This document shows positions 418 through 10,395 of a stretch of DNA of 10,445 nucleotides, in pieces. Where the stretch lies: the UHGV virus genome UHGV-0096675; one strand, given 5' to 3'. The position numbers and the translations under genes are program-made. The notes under the pieces are model-generated. The model saw nothing but the letters and a program-made list of their open reading frames with translations, had not been told where the DNA came from and searched no databases. This stretch comes from a virus. Every line of letters starts with the position of its first letter. Position 1 is the first letter of the stretch.

Positions 418-734
418 TGTGCTGCCCCCGTGCTGATGAGATAATCATTTTGTGATGTGGTTTTCATGGATTCCCCCTCACATGGCTGGTGGCCTCCCCA
501 AAGGCTGCCAGCCCCACTTCTGATTCAGCTCCTCTGAAAAATCACTCTTCCAGGAAGAACCCTTTTCGTTTCTCAGCGCCTGAGCGCTTTGTACTACCTT
601 GCTGATACAGGCGTTTTTTTAAATTGCGCCCTTAAGACAGTGATCTACTTAACCAATGGATCTCTCCTGTTGGAAAAGCCCCTATTCCTGCCCCTACACC
701 CAATCCCCCCTTACCCCCCTTTCCCTCTTCCCCA

Positions 735-759
735 TAAAAACGTACTACTTCCCTAGTAC
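735..759 (-). terminator. Weak putative intrinsic terminator downstream of the cII-position gene
   Basis: On the minus strand, hairpin GTACTA/TAGTAC (plus coordinates 742-747 and 754-759, 6-nt loop) is followed by a 5-T run (complement of A736-740). The stem is AT-rich and therefore weak. Confidence 0.3.
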
Positions 760-845
760 ATATGAGGAGTTGGGTCAGTTGGTTGCCAACCTGAACAGGC
801 GCCTTTAAGCCTGCTTCTGTTCGGGTACCTTTAAACCCGAAACAA

Positions 846-4789: not shown

Positions 4790-4988
4790 CTGTGTACCCC
4801 TTTCTACGTACTGCAGGGACGCGGGGGAAACGGTAGAAGCCGTTAACAAACGGATACAAAGGGGGTTATGGAAGGAGGGAGTACATGTATTAAAAGTCGA
4901 TGGCGTTAAAGAACGCTGGATTGACTTAACGGAGGTTTCGAAGTGGGCAAGAAAGAACAAGGATCATTATCTCTCCCAAGAGGAATAA
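4779..4988 (+). CDS. xis: Excisionase (Xis-like, recombination directionality factor)
   Basis: ATG at 4779 with GGAGG 8 nt upstream. The 69-aa product MSLDCVPLSTYCRDAGETVEAVNKRIQRGLWKEGVHVLKVDGVKERWIDLTEVSKWARKNK... is a small basic protein directly upstream of int and overlapping it by 46 nt, as xis does in lambdoid phages. Confidence 0.65.
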   Translation: MSLDCVPLSTYCRDAGETVEAVNKRIQRGLWKEGVHVLKVDGVKERWIDLTEVSKWARKNKDHYLSQEE

Positions 4989-6115
4989 CCATCCGCCAGC
5001 ATAAAACTGGCGACACTCTGGTTATCACTTTCACATACAAAGGGGTTCTGTGCCGGGAGCCCCTCTCCAAAATGGAAGCAAACGCGCGCGGTGTGAAGTA
5101 CGCCGAGCGCCTGCTCGGGGAGATACAAAACCAGATCGTCAGTGGCACCTTTGAATATGCGAAATATTTCCCCAACTCCAAAAAACTGGAGCTTTTCGGG
5201 GGGGTGAAGAAAACCAAAAACATAAAGTCTTACCTGGACGAGTACCTGAAAATCTGCCAGAACCGCAACCTGTCCCCGTCGACTATCAACGGTTATGAAA
5301 AATGCCTGTCGGCGCTGTCAGCCCTGCATAAACTCCACGTGTCAGAACTGACGCCAGCGGTCCTTAAAAACTGGATAGCCAGCCGGAAAACAAAGCTGAA
5401 AACGACCAGGAATAACCTTTCGTTTCTGCGCAGCGCCATCGATGAAGCTGTTACGGATGGCCTGCTGACCATTAACCCGGTAACCCTCGTCAGCGCCAGC
5501 CGGTACCACGTGATCGACAGCAGCCCGAGCGCCGACGATTACGAGGTTGACCCGTTCACGCCAGCGGAAACCCTCGCCATTTACCAGAGCTGCAGGTACC
5601 CGGAATGGGAAAACCTGTTCCGCTTTGCTTTCAATACCGGTCTGCGGAGCTCCGAACTGTGCGCGCTGCGCTGGCCTGATCTCGACACCATCGCGAACAC
5701 AGCCCACGTTCAGGCGGCCAGTGTCGTAGGGGTACTTAAAGGCACCAAGACAAAAGCCGGTACCCGTAAGGTGGAGCTGAACAGTGAGGCGCTGGCGGCC
5801 CTGCAGGCGCAGAAGCAATACACCTTTATGAAAAGTGAGTTCATATTCAGCGACCCGAAAACGGGAGAACCCTGGGCGAACGCCGACGCTATCCGTAAAA
5901 AAGCATGGGTGCCGACCCTGAAAAAAGCTGGCGTGCGCTATCGTAACCCGTACCAGACGCGGCACACATTCGCCACCAAGCATATTAGCCAGGGCGTTAA
6001 CCTCTTCTGGCTTGCCGGACAGATGGGCCACAAAGGACCGGAAATGATATTCCGCAACTACGGTAAATACCTGGCTGAATATGACGGTAAAACCGCGATT
6101 TCAGCCGCGCTGTAG
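4943..6115 (+). CDS. int: Tyrosine integrase (lambda Int family) of the lambdoid prophage
   Basis: GTG start at 4943 with GGAGG 7 nt upstream; 390 aa. Carries the conserved tyrosine-recombinase catalytic region (...GLRSSELCALRW..., ...RHTFATKHISQG..., ...FRNYGKYLAEY...). Its 3' end points at the ssrA-type att core, the lambda-like arrangement. Confidence 0.92.
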   Translation: MGKKEQGSLSLPRGITIRQHKTGDTLVITFTYKGVLCREPLSKMEANARGVKYAERLLGEIQNQIVSGTFEYAKYFPNSKKLELFGGVKKTKNIKSYLDEYLKICQNRNLSPSTINGYEKCLSALSALHKLHVSELTPAVLKNWIASRKTKLKTTRNNLSFLRSAIDEAVTDGLLTINPVTLVSASRYHVIDSSPSADDYEVDPFTPAETLAIYQSCRYPEWENLFRFAFNTGLRSSELCALRWPDLDTIANTAHVQAASVVGVLKGTKTKAGTRKVELNSEALAALQAQKQYTFMKSEFIFSDPKTGEPWANADAIRKKAWVPTLKKAGVRYRNPYQTRHTFATKHISQGVNLFWLAGQMGHKGPEMIFRNYGKYLAEYDGKTAISAAL

Positions 6116-6342: not shown

Positions 6343-6360
6343 ACGTCTATTGTAGTCTAG

Positions 6361-6436
6361 TGAGAATTGCTGAGAACTACGAGTTATGGCACCCTGAATG
6401 GGACCCACGAAGATGGGTCCTAAAATCGAGGGTCCC
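6361..6436. promoter_or_regulatory. Repeat cluster in the intA leader (candidate regulator or integrase binding sites)
   Basis: Direct repeat TGAGAA at 6361-6366 and 6371-6376. Inverted repeats GGGACCC (6400-6406) and GGGTCCC (6430-6436), with a third near-copy GGGTCC at 6415-6420. The region is open in the ORF track (GTG 6360) but lies upstream of the homology-supported ATG at 6441. Confidence 0.3.
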
Positions 6437-6440
6437 AAAC

Positions 6441-7670
6441 ATGGCCAAAATCGCTAAGAAGCTCACTGACACTGAAATCAAAAGCACCAAACCTGCCGAA
6501 AAAGAGGTTAACCTTTTTGACGGCGATGGTTTGCTGTTGCGAATCGCTCCCCTGGCGAAGGGAGGGAAGAAAAATTGGTATTTCAGATATGCAGTGCCTG
6601 TGACCAAAAAGCGAACTAAGGTGAGCTTAGGAACCTATCCTCACCTTACACTTGCGAAGGCACGAGCTTTACGTGATGAATACTTGTCGTTGCTTACAAA
6701 TGGTATAGACCCCCAAGTTCATAACAACCAAAAAGCCAATGCACTGAAAGATGCCACGGAACATACATTTCAAGCAGTAGCCAAGAAGTGGCTTGATGAG
6801 AAAGTCAAAACGTCAGGCATCTCCCAAGATCATGCTAACGACATCTGGCGAAGCCTAGAGAGAAATATCTTTTCCACATTGGGTGATACCCCAATTAAGG
6901 AGATTCGCCCTAAAATGCTTAAACAGCATTTAGAACCCATAGAAAAACGAGGTGTCCTTGAAACACTTCGCCGCATCATATCCCGCCTGAATGAAATTTT
7001 CCGCTATGCAGCAACAGAAGAACTCATAGAATTCAACCCGGCAGACAACCTGGGGCAACGGTTCAGCAAGCCAAAAAAACAGAATATGCCAGCATTACCC
7101 CCTTCCGAACTCCCTCGCTTCTTGGTTGCTCTAAACAATGCTTCTATCCGTTTGGAAACAAGGCTACTGATTGAGTGGCAACTTCTCACATGGGTTCGCC
7201 CAGGTGAAGCTGTTCGCACAAGATGGTCAGATATTGATATTGAAACTGGCATGTGGAACATCCCGGCGGAGTTTATGAAAATGAAGAAGCCTCACAAAGT
7301 TCCACTGAGCAAAGAAGCTTTGCGAGTTTTGGATTTAATGAAAGTCATCAGCGGGCATAGAGAGTGGGTGTTCCCCAGTATCAAAGCTCCACTCAATCAC
7401 ATGCATGAACAAACAGCTAATGCGGCCATAATCCGTATGGGTTTCGGAGGTGAGCTTGTAGCTCACGGTATGCGATCCATTGCTAGAACGGCTGCTGAGG
7501 AGTCTGGCAAGTTTAGGACTGATGTCTTAGAAGCCGCCCTTGCCCACTCGAAGAAAGATGAAATAATTGCAGCCTACAATCGTGCAGAGTATCTCACTGA
7601 ACGGGTGGTTCTCATGCAATGGTGGAGTGACTATGTTTCGTCTCAAAAATGCAAAGTTATTGCCGCATAA
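6441..7670 (+). CDS. intA: Tyrosine integrase, P4-like IntA family (CP4-57 IntA-like)
   Basis: ATG at 6441 with GAGGG 8 nt upstream. The product MAKIAKKLTDTEIKSTKPAEKEVNLFDGDGLLLRIA...DIWRSLERNIF...ALETLRRI...MWQLLT...HGMRSIARTA...LEAALAH...AYNRAEYL...MQWWSDYV aligns by eye, from memory, with E. coli CP4-57 IntA. The track start at GTG 6360 adds 27 residues not supported by that alignment. Confidence 0.9.
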   Translation: MAKIAKKLTDTEIKSTKPAEKEVNLFDGDGLLLRIAPLAKGGKKNWYFRYAVPVTKKRTKVSLGTYPHLTLAKARALRDEYLSLLTNGIDPQVHNNQKANALKDATEHTFQAVAKKWLDEKVKTSGISQDHANDIWRSLERNIFSTLGDTPIKEIRPKMLKQHLEPIEKRGVLETLRRIISRLNEIFRYAATEELIEFNPADNLGQRFSKPKKQNMPALPPSELPRFLVALNNASIRLETRLLIEWQLLTWVRPGEAVRTRWSDIDIETGMWNIPAEFMKMKKPHKVPLSKEALRVLDLMKVISGHREWVFPSIKAPLNHMHEQTANAAIIRMGFGGELVAHGMRSIARTAAEESGKFRTDVLEAALAHSKKDEIIAAYNRAEYLTERVVLMQWWSDYVSSQKCKVIAA

Positions 7671-7733
7671 CTCTCCCATGATGGATTAACTATCTTGATT
7701 TAGTTAAAGAATTAATAATCACACCATTAACCT

Positions 7734-7781
7734 ATGTGGACTAAGCATAGCCATTTACAAATGGGGACATTGAGTCCACAT
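7734..7781. repeat. 48-bp dyad-symmetric element (nested inverted repeats around a central AC) upstream of the recombinase operon
   Basis: Outer arms ATGTGGACT (7734-7742) / AGTCCACAT (7773-7781) and inner arms CCATTT (7751-7756) / AAATGG (7759-7764) share one symmetry centre at 7757/7758. The intervening 8-nt segments are not symmetric. No downstream T-run, so it is not a typical terminator. Confidence 0.5.
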
Positions 7782-7952
7782 AACGAAAGCTGTCGGTCAT
7801 ATCAGCTAAATAATTCACATCTCTTCTCGATTATCATACACCTCGAAGATCTACCAAATTCGCTCTAATCAATGATAAAACAGTTGAATTCGGTTAAAAT
7901 TTGATCAATTTTATCCACTACATTGTATTGAATCATCCATGAGGTTTCGTGC

Positions 7953-9509
7953 ATGGCTAGCGAAAATGAAAAAAATCATAGAGTTAGGGTCGCGCAGTAC
8001 TTGAGGATGTCTACCGACCATCAGCAATATTCTTTACATAATCAGTCCGAATATATCAAAGATTATGCTGAAAAGAACAATATGGAAATCGCTTATACCT
8101 ACGATGATGCAGGTAAGAGCGGAGTCAGTATCGTAGGCAGGCATTCTTTGCAGCAGTTACTTAGCGATGTAGAACAAAAGAAAATAGATATACAGGCTGT
8201 ATTATTTTATGATGTGAGCCGTTTTGGTCGTTTTCAAAATAGTGATGAAGCGGCATATTATTCCTTTCTATTTGAGAGAAATGGTGTAGATCTTATATAT
8301 TGTTCCGAACCTATACCCACTAAAGATTTCCCTTTAGAGTCCTCTGTTATACTGAATATAAAAAGATCTAGTGCTGCATATCACAGCAGGAATCTATCTG
8401 AAAAGGTATTTATAGGGCAAGTAAATTTAATAAAGCTTGGTTATCATCAAGGCGGTATGGCTGGTTATGGGCTGAGACGTCTTTTAGTAGACGAAAATGG
8501 CATAGCTAAAGAAATATTGAGTTTCCGCAAAAGAAAGAGTATTCAAACAGATAGGGTAATATTAATTCCGGGACCAAAAAATGAAATAAAAATTGTAAAT
8601 AGAATATATGATCTCTTTATAGATAATAACGTCCCAGAATTCATTATTGCTGAGAGATTAAATGAACAGAACATACCTGCAGAAAATGGAACATTATGGA
8701 CTCGTGCAAAAATACATCAAATTTTGACAAATGAAAAATATATTGGAAACAACATATATAACAAAACCTCATCTAAATTAAAAAGTAGGCTTGTAAAAAA
8801 CCCCAAACATGAATGGGTTAGATGTGACAAGGCATATAAACCTATTATTTCAAAGAAAAAATACAATAAAGCTCAAGAAATAATTCAGCTCCGATCCATT
8901 CATTTGACTAATGAAGATCTATTAGAAAAACTAAAACAAAAATTAGAATCTAATGGAAAACTATCAGGCTTTATCATTGATGAAGATGATACAGGCCCTT
9001 CATCTTCTGTTTATAGAACCCGATTTGGTGGTCTTTTAAGAGCATATACTTTGATTGGTTATAAGCCAGAACATGATTACAGCTATCTCAAAATAAATGA
9101 AGCACTAAGATCATTTTACTCAGAGATAATTGAGGATTTTAAGGGTGAAATTTTAAAAAGTAACTGTCATATAGACGAGTATAAATATGCCCCAATGCTT
9201 TACATCAATGATGAGTTTTTAATTTCCGTCCTTGTTACTAAATGCATACATATGAAATCAGGTAAACTTAGATGGAAAGTCCGGTTTGATAACTCACAGA
9301 AAGCAGACATAACAATTGTTATACGAATGAATTCACAAAATATTTCACCTCTTGATTTTTATATCATACCAAAGATTGAAAACGAATATAATAAAATGTG
9401 CATGACGGAAACAAACAACATTCGATTAGATCTCTATAGATTTGATAATCTTGATAAACTTCTACAAATTATTACTCGCATGAAAGTGAGGGAACTATAT
9501 GCTGCCTGA
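7953..9509 (+). CDS. Large serine recombinase-like protein (resolvase/invertase N-terminal catalytic domain plus recombinase domain; no canonical zinc ribbon seen)
   Basis: ATG at 7953 with GAGG 8 nt upstream; 518 aa. N-terminus RVAQYLRMSTDHQQYSLHNQ fits the serine-recombinase catalytic motif (Y-x-R-x-S-T-x-x-Q), and ...IQAVLFYDVSRFGRF... fits the conserved D-x-S-R-x-x-R motif. GGMAGYGL resembles the start of the recombinase domain. No CxxC pairs are present. Confidence 0.85.
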   Translation: MASENEKNHRVRVAQYLRMSTDHQQYSLHNQSEYIKDYAEKNNMEIAYTYDDAGKSGVSIVGRHSLQQLLSDVEQKKIDIQAVLFYDVSRFGRFQNSDEAAYYSFLFERNGVDLIYCSEPIPTKDFPLESSVILNIKRSSAAYHSRNLSEKVFIGQVNLIKLGYHQGGMAGYGLRRLLVDENGIAKEILSFRKRKSIQTDRVILIPGPKNEIKIVNRIYDLFIDNNVPEFIIAERLNEQNIPAENGTLWTRAKIHQILTNEKYIGNNIYNKTSSKLKSRLVKNPKHEWVRCDKAYKPIISKKKYNKAQEIIQLRSIHLTNEDLLEKLKQKLESNGKLSGFIIDEDDTGPSSSVYRTRFGGLLRAYTLIGYKPEHDYSYLKINEALRSFYSEIIEDFKGEILKSNCHIDEYKYAPMLYINDEFLISVLVTKCIHMKSGKLRWKVRFDNSQKADITIVIRMNSQNISPLDFYIIPKIENEYNKMCMTETNNIRLDLYRFDNLDKLLQIITRMKVRELYAA

Positions 9510-10395
9510 AAAAAATGAATTCCCAATAATTCAAATTGAGATTGCAAAAATAAAATTTCTTAACCCACGAACAAGAAATAAGGTAGTGCATGAAGAAATA
9601 AAGGAAAGCATAAAAAAAAGAGGATTAAGCAAGCCTATAAGCGTAAGAGCTATTGATGAAGGCGATTTCAAATATGCTTTAATTTGTGGTCAAGGGAGAA
9701 TAGAGGCTCTCGTTGCATTAGGTGAAACTATTATTCCAGCAATTATAAGAGATGTATCAGAAGAAGATGCTTACGTTATGAGTTTAGTTGAAAACATTGC
9801 AAGGAGAAGACCACGTTCTAATGAGTTATTACAGGTGATTAAAGACATGAAAATCAGAGGACTTTCAGACTCCGAAATAAGTGAGATTACTGGATATTCA
9901 TCGAACTGGGTGAGCAGTATTAATATGCTACTTGATAAGGGAGAGCATAAACTTCTCTCAGCAGTCGAACGGGGTAATTTGCCTCTGTATCTCGCAGTGC
10001 AATTTGCAAGATGTGAAACTGAGGAAGCACAAGATATTCTTACCGAAGCATATGATAAAAAATTAATAAAAAGTCGGGACATTATAAAGATAAAACACAT
10101 TCTAAATCAAAGAACAGTTGGGAATAAAGGTGCAAAAGCAGCCGGATTTTATTATCACAAACCATCAAAAAGGATGACTTCAGAGGAGTTGATTGAGCTT
10201 TATGAAAATAGTATCGCTGAACATAAATCTGTTTATAACAACTCAAAATTCATAAAAACCAACCTACTAATAGTAAATGAGATTTTTAACATCATAATGA
10301 TGAATAAAAGCTTTCAACATATACTTGAACAAGAGAATCTTTCAGAACTACCATCTCAGATATTAACCCCAGTAAACAAAGAGGTATTAAAATGA
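9499..10395 (+). CDS. ParB/Srx-like N-terminal domain protein with HTH (divergent ParB box: GQGRIEAL instead of GERRxRA)
   Basis: ATG at 9499 overlaps the recombinase stop (ATGCTGCCTGA) with GAGGG 7 nt upstream; 298 aa. ...PISVRAIDEGDFKYALICGQGRIEALVALGETIIPAIIRDVSEEDAYVMSLVENIARR... matches ParB N-terminal domain architecture, followed by an HTH-like segment (LSDSEISEITGYSSNWVSSINMLL). The C-terminal 100 or so residues are uncharacterised. Confidence 0.8.
   Translation: MLPEKNEFPIIQIEIAKIKFLNPRTRNKVVHEEIKESIKKRGLSKPISVRAIDEGDFKYALICGQGRIEALVALGETIIPAIIRDVSEEDAYVMSLVENIARRRPRSNELLQVIKDMKIRGLSDSEISEITGYSSNWVSSINMLLDKGEHKLLSAVERGNLPLYLAVQFARCETEEAQDILTEAYDKKLIKSRDIIKIKHILNQRTVGNKGAKAAGFYYHKPSKRMTSEELIELYENSIAEHKSVYNNSKFIKTNLLIVNEIFNIIMMNKSFQHILEQENLSELPSQILTPVNKEVLK

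Follow-up and report, generated by a model that had tools for sequence, protein, structure and literature searches.

Organization of the Locus

The DNA analyzed here is a 10,445-nt stretch of the UHGV virus genome UHGV-0096675 (hereafter, the window), and within its 10.4 kb it contains the left part of a lambdoid prophage. Between a small gene matching the PHROG family phrog_852 and the gene of a RadD-like superfamily 2 (SF2) helicase, both read on the minus strand in the rightward early operon, lies a gene-free stretch of 428 bp, which carries a homopurine tract with seven G runs. The features of the locus are listed in Table 1. As it stands, the stretch is a strongly conserved and well-delimited non-coding module, and we tentatively propose that its G tract marks a site at which transcription could start phage DNA replication.

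TABLE 1. Features of the window in and around the non-coding module (ORF, open reading frame; MFE, minimum free energy).
Feature	Position	Strand	Basis or remark
Homopurine G-run tract, seven G3-G6 runs	679-733	minus (sense, non-template)	G4Hunter, motif scan
Core GGGGGGTAAGGGGGG, two G6 runs with a 3-nt A/T spacer	705-719	minus	most widely conserved part of the tract
Hairpin hp1, stem (U)CGGGU / ACCCG(A), 8-nt loop UUAAAGGU	821-840	minus	read from the sequence
Hairpin hp2, stem GCAGGC / GCCUGU, loop UUAAAGGC	795-814	minus	RNAalifold
Left 19-bp imperfect palindrome TGTACTAGGGAAGTAGTAC (GTACTA N6 TAGTAC), candidate site of a dimeric protein	742-760		repeat search
Invariant blocks CTTTTCCAACAG (678-667) and CCATTGGTTAAGTAGATCAC (659-640)	640-678		alignment; two GATC sites near the second block
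GGCG-(A7-containing loop)-CGCC hairpin	630-610		Fels-1 counterpart has the compensated stem GGGCA...TGCCC
Right 19-bp repeat TGTATCAGCAAGGTAGTAC	609-591		repeat search; 591-609 against 742-760, 74%
Block G TTCTTCCTGGAAGAGTGA, palindromic core TCTTCC-T-GGAAGA	542-559		TGGAA-AG invariant in all lineages
Hairpin GGCUGGCAGCC-UUUGGGGA-GGCCACCAGCC	484-513	minus	repeat search; MFE and centroid structures
Strong Shine-Dalgarno sequence GAGGGGGA (479-472) and 19-codon upstream ORF MKTTSQNDYLISTGAAQWS with its stop (467-408)	408-479	minus	
Gene-free stretch	845-418		between the TGA of the preceding ORF (848-846, minus) and the helicase ATG (417-415)
RadD-like SF2 helicase, N-terminal 139 aa, cut by the window edge	1-417	minus	Pfam ResIII/DEAD
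phrog_852 gene	846-1142	minus	about 98 aa from the ATG at 1142; mechanical ORF from TTG 846-1178, up to about 110 aa
cro	1332-1126	minus	Pfam Cro
CI-type repressor	1407-2126	plus	
Integrase of the prophage	4943-6115	plus	

Composition and Conservation of the G-Run Tract

An earlier reading of this DNA, made from the letters alone (the sequence-only reading), had described the plus strand at 663-735 as a near-continuous polypyrimidine tract, and base counts agreed with it: these 73 nt contain C37, G5, T20, and A11. The maximal |C-G| per 73 nt was 36 at the tract, which exceeded all of 1000 shuffles (maximum, 29) and the rest of the window (maximum, 21). The minus-strand runs are, in order, G4 (733-730), G3, G6 (719-714), G6 (710-705), G3, G4, and G4 (682-679). 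The claimed number of at least seven runs was therefore correct, but the longest is G6, and the upper length of G7 was a slight overstatement. The G4Hunter magnitude reached 2.4 at the tract in a 25-nt window, and the sole canonical G3+N1-7 quadruplex motif of the window was located here, with overlapping matches over 733-691 on the minus strand. The proposed G-quadruplex-forming pattern is thus borne out, and the tract is predicted to be capable of an intramolecular G-quadruplex (at least four runs of at least three G, loops of 1-7 nt). The same skew had also been said to continue at 460-530; there the GC skew was only about -0.18, much weaker than in the tract, and this part is a separate sub-module made up of a hairpin and the 19-codon upstream ORF. 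The rest of the untranslated gap showed no G skew. The GC content was 0.48-0.52 across the stretch, and its only A/T feature was an A7 run.

The tract was also the site of the window where an RNA:DNA hybrid was most favored over the DNA duplex. At 737-677, the difference in free energy (hybrid minus duplex) was approximately -27 kcal/mol per 61 nt (z = -5.4), compared with -17 at the next best site, and this preference applied to sense transcription only. The energies were calculated with nearest-neighbor parameters for RNA:DNA (Sugimoto 1995) and DNA:DNA (SantaLucia 1998).

Conservation was measured as mean pairwise nucleotide identity in a sample of 17 loci, the helicase proteins of which are 87-97% identical. 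Identity was 0.963 for the G tract (664-738) and 0.83-0.96 for the entire non-coding stretch (418-845); for comparison, it was 0.95 and 0.97 at helicase codon positions 1 and 2, respectively, and 0.70 at codon position 3 of both the helicase and the phrog_852 genes. Because the tract is far more conserved than the third codon positions of the helicase (0.963 vs. 0.70), it is under strong purifying selection and represents a functional non-coding element. The G core was retained from Escherichia to Xenorhabdus prophages, where the helicase is just 66-67% identical, and the conservation in related prophages on which the sequence-only reading had made its idea depend was found.

The core is conserved as a structure with no fixed word, namely, two G5-8 runs split by 1-3 A/T. 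Phages of Escherichia, Yersinia, and Cronobacter share the identical form GGGGGGTAAGGGGGG, as do many prophages of Enterobacteriaceae. Xenorhabdus-type and other lineages carried the variants G6TTG6, G5-6TTTG5-6, G5TAAG5, G7TTAG8, and G5AAAG5, and the Fels-1 type carries GGAGGGGAGGGGGAGGAG in place of the core. The anatomy was compared in the window type, the L158 type, L139, the Fels-1 type, and the Xenorhabdus types; in all of them, the G runs lie on the sense, non-template strand of the early operon, with C nearly excluded from the conserved feature. The complete tract was present in 42 of the 5426 complete E. coli genomes, and a further 38 shared only the helicase-proximal 114 bp. A distant blastn search against phages matched the same family only, and HK022 and HK97 were absent from the matches. 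Six matches were obtained in a plasmid collection; the one examined is circular, 42.9 kb long, and represents an entire prophage-like genome that includes an integrase, and therefore does not demonstrate a minimal replicon.

The statement that no meaningful ORF exists in 418-845 also held, as no conserved ORF was found on either strand. Stop-to-stop frames over the G core ranged from 2 to 148 codons in 17 relatives, and close relatives differ by 1-nt frame-breaking indels in the G and T runs. These indels and the unconserved frames led to the rejection of the antisense ORFs at 589-756 and 656-808, of a 23-aa ORF starting with TTG, and of several mini-ORFs that begin within the G tract.

Survey of Helicase Loci

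The replication genes examined beside the module included those of a RadD-like SF2 helicase and of a Toprim primase, and no origin-binding initiator was recognized among them; phrog_852 could be an initiator. A survey of 114 distinct helicase loci was performed. The G core or its Fels-1 form was present in 89 of them, and a winged-helix gene occurred in none of these 89. In another 17 loci, a 152-aa winged-helix protein and two 20-bp repeats were found at the same position, and all 17 were without the G tract. The winged-helix protein shows weak similarity to PHROGs of the replication-initiator or DnaD-like kind (E values, 5e-7 to 1e-4). At this position, the G tract thus excludes a winged-helix initiator-like gene, and vice versa.

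Seven other loci with phrog_852 had been scored as coreless and were rechecked. Two were misses of the regular expression (an N inside a run; G5-AGTAAGA-G5), in another two, a weaker G run precedes approximately 90 nt of AT-rich DNA, and the last three have a GTAC palindrome and 15-bp direct repeats with A/T runs. The AT-rich DNA behind a weaker G run and the direct repeats with A/T runs are origin-like features at the position of the tract. The one locus left, from a Colwellia prophage, showed none of these features. A Colwellia prophage with a distant helicase homologue of 53% identity (L023, 2500-2800) has, upstream of the helicase, about 250 nt of GC-rich, hairpin-rich DNA resembling a structured RNA, with no G tract.

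In the sister lineage (L422 316-1801, L418-L438), the gene order is a CII-like gene (phrog_191), phrog_852, a 230-bp spacer, the gene of the 152-aa winged-helix protein, and the helicase. The spacer holds two 20-bp repeats containing GACAGGATCTGTC. This gene order shows that phrog_852 and CII are different genes and that phrog_852 goes with the replication genes. The gene upstream of the stretch had been called a cII-position gene; this description is right as to position, but the assignment as a CII homologue was rejected, given its match to phrog_852 and the genuine CII-like gene upstream of phrog_852 in the sister lineage. In every lineage, the space from phrog_852 to the next gene thus looks like a cis-acting replicon hub.

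The helicase was downstream of phrog_852 in all 72 sampled close relatives (80-100% identical). phrog_852 is always directly upstream of the module, and the module precedes the RadD-like helicase and a DnaG-type primase. A separation of phrog_852, module, and helicase was sought in 72 + 114 loci, and none was found.

Sense-Strand Hairpins and a Possible RNA Leader

Two tandem hairpins, hp1 and hp2, lie at the start of the module. Their 8-nt loop UUAAAGGY is invariant in the lineages that carry the hairpins, and their stems covary, with variants such as CAGGC/GCCUG, CUGAC/GUCAG, CCGGGC/GCCCGG, and GGUC/GACC. When 44 distinct variants of hp1 and hp2 were pooled, 90.3% of the cells were paired compared with 70.4% in shuffles (0/500), and the covariation score was 0.638 compared with 0.264; controls with a slid register gave 28-48%. 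The variants were chosen by position and obvious non-hairpin matches were dropped, so these figures lean slightly toward pairing. Approximately 10% of the cells are G.U, which pairs on the sense strand only. RNAalifold supported paired columns 122:137 (UA5/AU4/GC4) and 124:135 (GC5/AU5/GU2/UA1). Judged by these patterns, part of the region is a structured sense-strand RNA.

The main alternative to a replication start is therefore built on the transcript. Here the region would be an early-operon regulatory leader or a 3' untranslated region (UTR), in which the two hairpins, together with the G-rich segment and the pyrimidine block downstream of it, act as RNA in the control of read-through (nut- or put-like antitermination), processing, stability, or replication-gene expression, and phrog_852 might bind this RNA. 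We regard this explanation as possible, if rather unlikely. In addition to the hairpins with their invariant loops, covarying stems, and sense-only G.U pairs, the sense RNA of the full 428 nt has a better fold than its shuffles (z = -3.2); the antisense strand, however, folds at least as well (z = -4.7). RNAalifold pairs the second G6 with UUCUUCCU of block G with some compensatory changes, but this long-range helix is mostly G.U, and the conserved blocks other than the hairpins are invariant instead of covarying. Xenorhabdus-type modules have the G core without the UUAAAGG hairpins. An Rfam 15 covariance-model search of 300-1400 at E <= 10 returned only chance-level matches (E values, 3.6 and 8.3), far under the gathering scores. 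The structured-leader and non-coding RNA options of the sequence-only reading, like its origin option, thus stand insofar as the element is selected, non-coding, and bears hairpins in the sense RNA; a known RNA family was not recovered.

The neighborhood points in the direction of RNA as well. phrog_852 carries an Arg-rich segment, RKENRARHEANTRLR (invariant form, RKENRARHEANxRLR), in a predicted helix and is always adjacent, and the overlap of its gene with cro leaves no space for a nutR/tR1-type site further upstream. The AlphaFold2 model of phrog_852, however, is helical (predicted local distance difference test score, 71.6), and a Foldseek search against the PDB gave no fold match, including to known RNA-binding folds; the Arg-rich segment lies in the middle or toward the C terminus of the protein and not at its N terminus.

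Specific RNA signals were considered. A nut site was rejected: the boxA-like sequences CGCUCCUGA and CGCTCCTGA (CGCTCTTA-like) of the window are unconserved in relatives, the hairpins have the 8-nt loop UUAAAGGY and no GNRA-like pentaloop, and no N-like protein was identified. A hairpin followed by U5 at 759-734 favors a leader, but as an intrinsic terminator (GUACUA-N6-UAGUAC + U5) it was rejected, as its AU-rich 6-bp stem is weak and was missed by a terminator scan. The U run behind it is lost in other lineages (L008, L009, L010, Fels-1, and L158 types). Antisense copy control of the ColE1 type was also rejected, since no promoter-like site was found in 300-1500 and the lone plus-strand terminator-like hit was hp2, with a poor T tail.

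Palindromes and Invariant Blocks Around the G Tract

The G unit is bracketed by a pair of 19-bp repeats 151 bp apart, the right repeat being equal to the left palindrome at 14 of 19 positions. GTTTTTAT follows the left palindrome in the window lineage only, and Xenorhabdus-type relatives have a different palindrome, of type TTTAGACGTCTAAA, at these borders. Between the G runs and the right repeat, the blocks CTTTTCCAACAG and CATWGGTTARGTAGATC are invariant across lineages, including Xenorhabdus (AGCCAA ... TTAAATAGATC), with a roughly fixed spacing (TTCCAA, 15-17 nt, TTAAGT). The blocks at 640-678 are a poor match to sigma-70. The palindromic block G, TTCCTGGAAGAG, closes the module at its 3' edge.

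These features would also suit double-stranded regulatory DNA, which we consider unlikely as the role of the module. Under this explanation, the palindromes and blocks such as TTCCTGGAA would be operators of a phage protein that loops the DNA or represses or activates an internal promoter for the replication genes, and the G tract would be a spacer or a structural part. The palindromes at both borders of the unit, jointly swapped for another type in Xenorhabdus-type phages, the TCTTCC-T-GGAAGA block that is invariant in all lineages, and the spacing of the invariant blocks all argue for it. On the other side, a scan of 300-1500 on both strands gave no sigma-70-like promoter, the candidate hexamers being without the key -11A and -7T, and a spacer role leaves unexplained that the G tract has the highest conservation and a strict strand polarity. 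Consensus sequences of sigma-54, sigma-32, and sigma-E were compared by eye, with no convincing or conserved match. The GTAC palindromes were rejected as CI/Cro operators because they are kept in heteroimmune phages such as ENT39118 and because the operators of the window (ATACT-N3-6-AGTAT) have another spacing.

An iteron-type origin was likewise rejected, since the only repeats are the two of 19 bp and three weak ones of 21 nt (which are the hairpins), and there is no AT-rich block and no O- or Rep-like protein.

Other Explanations of the Tract

Management of Rho by composition is a third explanation. A G-rich, C-poor sense RNA would block Rho loading, and the C-rich antisense RNA would be an efficient rut site shielding the cro/repressor region from antisense transcription. 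The antisense of the tract has by sequence the composition of a rut site (approximately 70-80 nt, C-rich, G-poor), the sense strand has the inverse of C37/G5 in 73 nt, and the operon contains 428 nt of untranslated RNA. We nevertheless consider this explanation very unlikely, as composition alone requires neither 96% identity, nor a cross-genus G5-8 W1-3 G5-8 core (W, A or T), nor fixed flanking blocks, and the G skew does not extend to the remainder of the gap.

A decoy RNA appears still less probable. The purine tract, with its GGA motifs and the Shine-Dalgarno-like UAAGGGGGG, would sequester CsrA or the 30S subunit early in infection; there are nine GGA in approximately 330 nt of sense RNA, and UAAGGGGG pairs with the 3' end of 16S rRNA with one G.U. 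This GGA count is, however, the expectation from G richness alone, the motifs are outside hairpin loops in the predicted fold, and the element is present in a single copy per phage genome, with no support from relatives. A decayed coding sequence or small real genes can be virtually dismissed: two antisense ORFs of 38-41 aa are annotated in Fostie, PGAP lists a "hypothetical protein" in some E. coli genomes, and TCCTGGAAGAG at about 541-575 is common to the start of a Fels-1-type ORF, but single-nucleotide indels break the frames of close relatives, the stop-to-stop frames range from 2 to 148 codons with none conserved, and the conservation is far beyond that of neutral or decaying sequence.

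A Transcription-Driven Replication Start as the Favored Interpretation

An origin-type role of the module is favored because no initiator was recognized beside the helicase and primase and because the G tract and the winged-helix gene exclude each other. From the observed composition, selection, strand polarity, thermodynamic preference, and modular architecture, we infer, tentatively and as the best of the candidates, that the region at about 590-845, centered on 679-733, may be a cis-acting replication-initiation region in which transcription drives the formation of an R-loop or a hybrid G-quadruplex, followed by priming and origin activity. The replicon would be of a helicase-primase lambdoid type. 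The sequence properties associated with R-loop origins were found at the tract: its non-template strand is G-rich, its hybrid is predicted to be stabler than the duplex, and it lies approximately 600 nt past the cro-side early promoter region.

The proposed course is as follows. Rightward early transcription from the cro-side promoter, approximately 600 nt upstream on the minus strand, would cross the tract with the homopurine G-run strand as the non-template strand. The purine-rich RNA and the C/T-rich template could then form an unusually stable hybrid, that is, an R-loop, and the two G6 runs may fix this hybrid together with the displaced strand in the form of a DNA:RNA hybrid G-quadruplex. 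In this way, the duplex would be opened without an origin-binding initiator, and an RNA 3' end, displaced single-stranded DNA, or both would be exposed. The RadD-like SF2 helicase, the DnaG-type primase, and host replication proteins might begin DNA synthesis at the tract. The bracketing 19-bp palindromes may bind a putative phage protein that positions or regulates initiation, and the upstream hairpins may act in the transcript.

Several points weigh against this interpretation. The hybrid energies are approximate and largely restate the G-run content. The window has no iteron array and no AT-rich unwinding element. The sense-strand G.U pairs of the hairpins show that at least a portion of the region acts in the form of RNA, and a regulatory leader would account for this just as well. 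Since phrog_852, the module, and the helicase were never separate in the sample, co-variation cannot tell which partner the module serves, and the mutual exclusion of tract and winged-helix gene could reflect two or three ancestral events alone. In the replication-organizer genes described below, the G runs have the opposite polarity. Lastly, no description was found in the literature for the element or for the origin in replicons of this type. The explanations considered here are not mutually exclusive, as RNA hairpins together with a cis-acting, R-loop-prone tract would be a ColE1-like combination.

Neighboring Genes and the Helicase-Proximal Part

The helicase resembles E. coli RadD (PDB 6jde; E value, 4e-21) and matches the NCBIfam RadD profile with an E value of 1e-27, under the cut-off of the profile. 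A full-length relative consists of ResIII and Helicase_C. The protein is of the RadD-like SF2 type and does not belong to the hexameric replicative helicases. Among sequenced phages, Escherichia phage Fostie, Yersinia phage YP3, and Cronobacter phage ENT39118 (Hendrixvirinae) are the closest. According to the annotations of relatives, the helicase is followed by a Toprim/Zn-ribbon (DnaG-type) primase and then by a Q-like antiterminator. The match of the upstream gene to phrog_852 had an E value of 7.6e-39; this family is annotated as of unknown function, all 454 homologues found are without a name, and no match was found in Pfam or NCBIfam.

The gene that follows block G differs by lineage: the helicase directly, a 123-aa PD-(D/E)xK-like ORF (Fels-1), an HNH endonuclease ORF, or a 59-aa ORF. 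In the window itself, the hairpin and the 19-codon upstream ORF lie between the module and the helicase. The different genes downstream of block G indicate an insertion hot spot, and since the following gene varies, the module is not a dedicated translational leader of one gene. The ORF of 123-133 aa (phrog_1347) contains a PD-(D/E)xK-like motif (IDCLV...AIEVDK) with weak hints of the NERD and restriction endonuclease (REase) families in Pfam. In prophages of the Fels-1 type and in some of Xenorhabdus, it is inserted behind the module and ahead of the helicase (L006 2130-2498, which is Fels-1; L004 2128-2502; L018 2369-2770). The window lacks this ORF but shares TCCTGGAAGAG, at about 541-575, with its start, and block G lies inside the 123-aa ORF in Fels-1-type phages (LLEEQF). 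HNH/NUMOD-like homing-endonuclease ORFs are located between block G and the helicase start in L019 (1790-2674), L021 (2124-3023), and L151.

The helicase-proximal sub-module is also found directly upstream of Fels-1-type helicases. The TGA of the upstream ORF overlaps the helicase start (ATGGAGCTGA), and the two are probably translationally coupled. Roughly the first 30 nt of this ORF do not vary in any of the relatives, Fels-1 included. Given the truncation of the ORF in YP3, its peptide is probably of no importance in itself.

Behind the repressor gene, at 2126-2270, a clean intrinsic terminator, AGCCTGTCCTCTCGACAGGCTTTTTTTT, is followed by the PL-type operators ATACTTTTAGTAT and ATACTAAAACATCTAGTAT, which match the OR operators at 1340-1400. 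Past the prophage integrase are a second tyrosine integrase (6360-7670), a large serine recombinase (7953-9509), and a ParB/RepB-like gene (9499-10395). The gene set at 6360-10395 suggests a second mobile element integrated in tandem.

The Core Motif Outside the Family

The exact core 15-mer matched at least 120 IMG/VR contigs. This number is approximately the chance expectation for any 15-mer, and many of the matches are coding (PPLPP/TPLTP) or Shine-Dalgarno-like sequences in 5' UTRs, so the raw count is no evidence. One class of matches, however, is non-random: in replication-organizer genes of unrelated phages, annotated as "primosomal protein I" or "replication initiation protein," the core complement is located where the N- and C-terminal domains join, directly after iteron-like tandem repeats (IMG/VR loci L104-L223 and L224-L321, e.g., L208, L212, L228-L231, L242, L275, L281, and L285-L300). 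In an unbiased sample, the motif C5-6, W2-4, C5-6, N2-6, G4-6, which is the core complement plus an inverted G run, was present in 16 of the 71 distinct homologues. It is found in different reading frames and encodes the peptides TPLTP, PPLPP, TPLPP, PPTP, TPQPP, NPQTP, and APLNP. Homologues that are 54-64% identical retain the exact 15-mer, including a rare TTA codon, in GC-rich genes. These patterns suggest selection at the DNA or RNA level near phage origins, and the motif is possibly a hairpin or triplex-capable origin element. Because the G runs lie on the template strand in these genes, the link to the element of the window is suggestive only.

Comparison With Known Systems

The module is of interest at several levels. 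It is a compact candidate, of approximately 250 bp, for the choice of start site in helicase-primase phages without a recognizable initiator, and it provides a sharp sequence marker of this replicon type for prophage annotation. Even if the region acts as a leader, the paired UUAAAGGY hairpins are a new conserved RNA motif beside the widespread, uncharacterized phrog_852. If the replication-start interpretation is true, it would constitute a transcription-primed R-loop origin in a setting where none has been reported and link RadD-like SF2 helicases to origin processing, and an R-loop or hybrid quadruplex would bring natural G-quadruplex/R-loop biology to an enterobacterial virus in a genetically tractable host. 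A broader generalization, which we hold to be unlikely but worth stating, is that a family of Enterobacterales lambdoid (Hendrixvirinae-related) prophages uses an initiator-free origin, based on an R-loop or hybrid G-quadruplex at G5-8 W1-3 G5-8 and used by the RadD-like helicase and the DnaG-type primase. This would be the bacterial-virus counterpart of mitochondrial CSB II (a conserved sequence block) and of ColE1, and the double-run motif in replication-organizer genes would then be a general origin element.

The element was compared with systems in which RNA or transcription takes part in initiation. Retroviral polypurine tracts are purine-only RNAs ending in G6 that form an RNase H-resistant hybrid primer. 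The tract of the window resembles them in its purine-only stretch with G6 runs; there is no reverse transcription here, and the analogy is one of nucleic-acid chemistry only. The lambda origin requires local transcription, and its iterons and AT-rich region are inside the O gene. Like that origin, the element is located downstream of the cro/cII position, at the head of the replication genes, but it is intergenic, with no O-like initiator recognized, no four-iteron array, and no AT-rich block. It also differs from the replication-organizer genes, in which the G runs are of opposite polarity to transcription. Lambda nutR and HK022 put share with the module small early-transcript hairpins just past the cro-side genes and, here, an adjacent Arg-rich small protein; the differences are the lack of a conserved boxA, an 8-nt loop instead of the boxB pentaloop, an Arg-rich part that is not N-terminal, no Rfam match, and no conserved downstream terminator.

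Replication of ColE1/pMB1 plasmids is independent of an initiator protein; the transcript starts approximately 500 nt upstream, and upstream stem-loops with recognition loops regulate it. Masukata and Tomizawa reportedly found in 1990 that the persistent hybrid formed by ColE1 RNA II requires a G-rich stretch of the RNA and a C-rich stretch of the template. The module is similar in having hairpins with conserved loops upstream of a G6 tract, about 600 nt from the early promoter in the prophage. It is dissimilar in that no antisense gene or promoter of the RNA I type was detected in the scan, there is no sequence similarity, and it is a prophage element embedded in an operon. Moreover, the prophage brings an SF2 helicase and a primase of its own, whereas replication of ColE1 makes use of RNase H, Pol I, and PriA.

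CSB II has a layout of two G runs split by one A. The element likewise has two long non-template G runs with a very short spacer, downstream of a promoter as in CSB II and the mitochondrial origin OH, here in the form G6-TAA-G6 and upstream of a helicase gene. At CSB II, nascent RNA and the displaced non-template strand with its G runs form a hybrid G-quadruplex, which stabilizes an R-loop where transcription primes replication, and primer release has been proposed to require a helicase (PMC3488243). Unlike CSB II, the prophage tract belongs to another domain of life with a different polymerase, and there is no sequence homology; it is approximately 55 nt long, comprises seven runs, is bracketed by palindromes, and is known from sequence.

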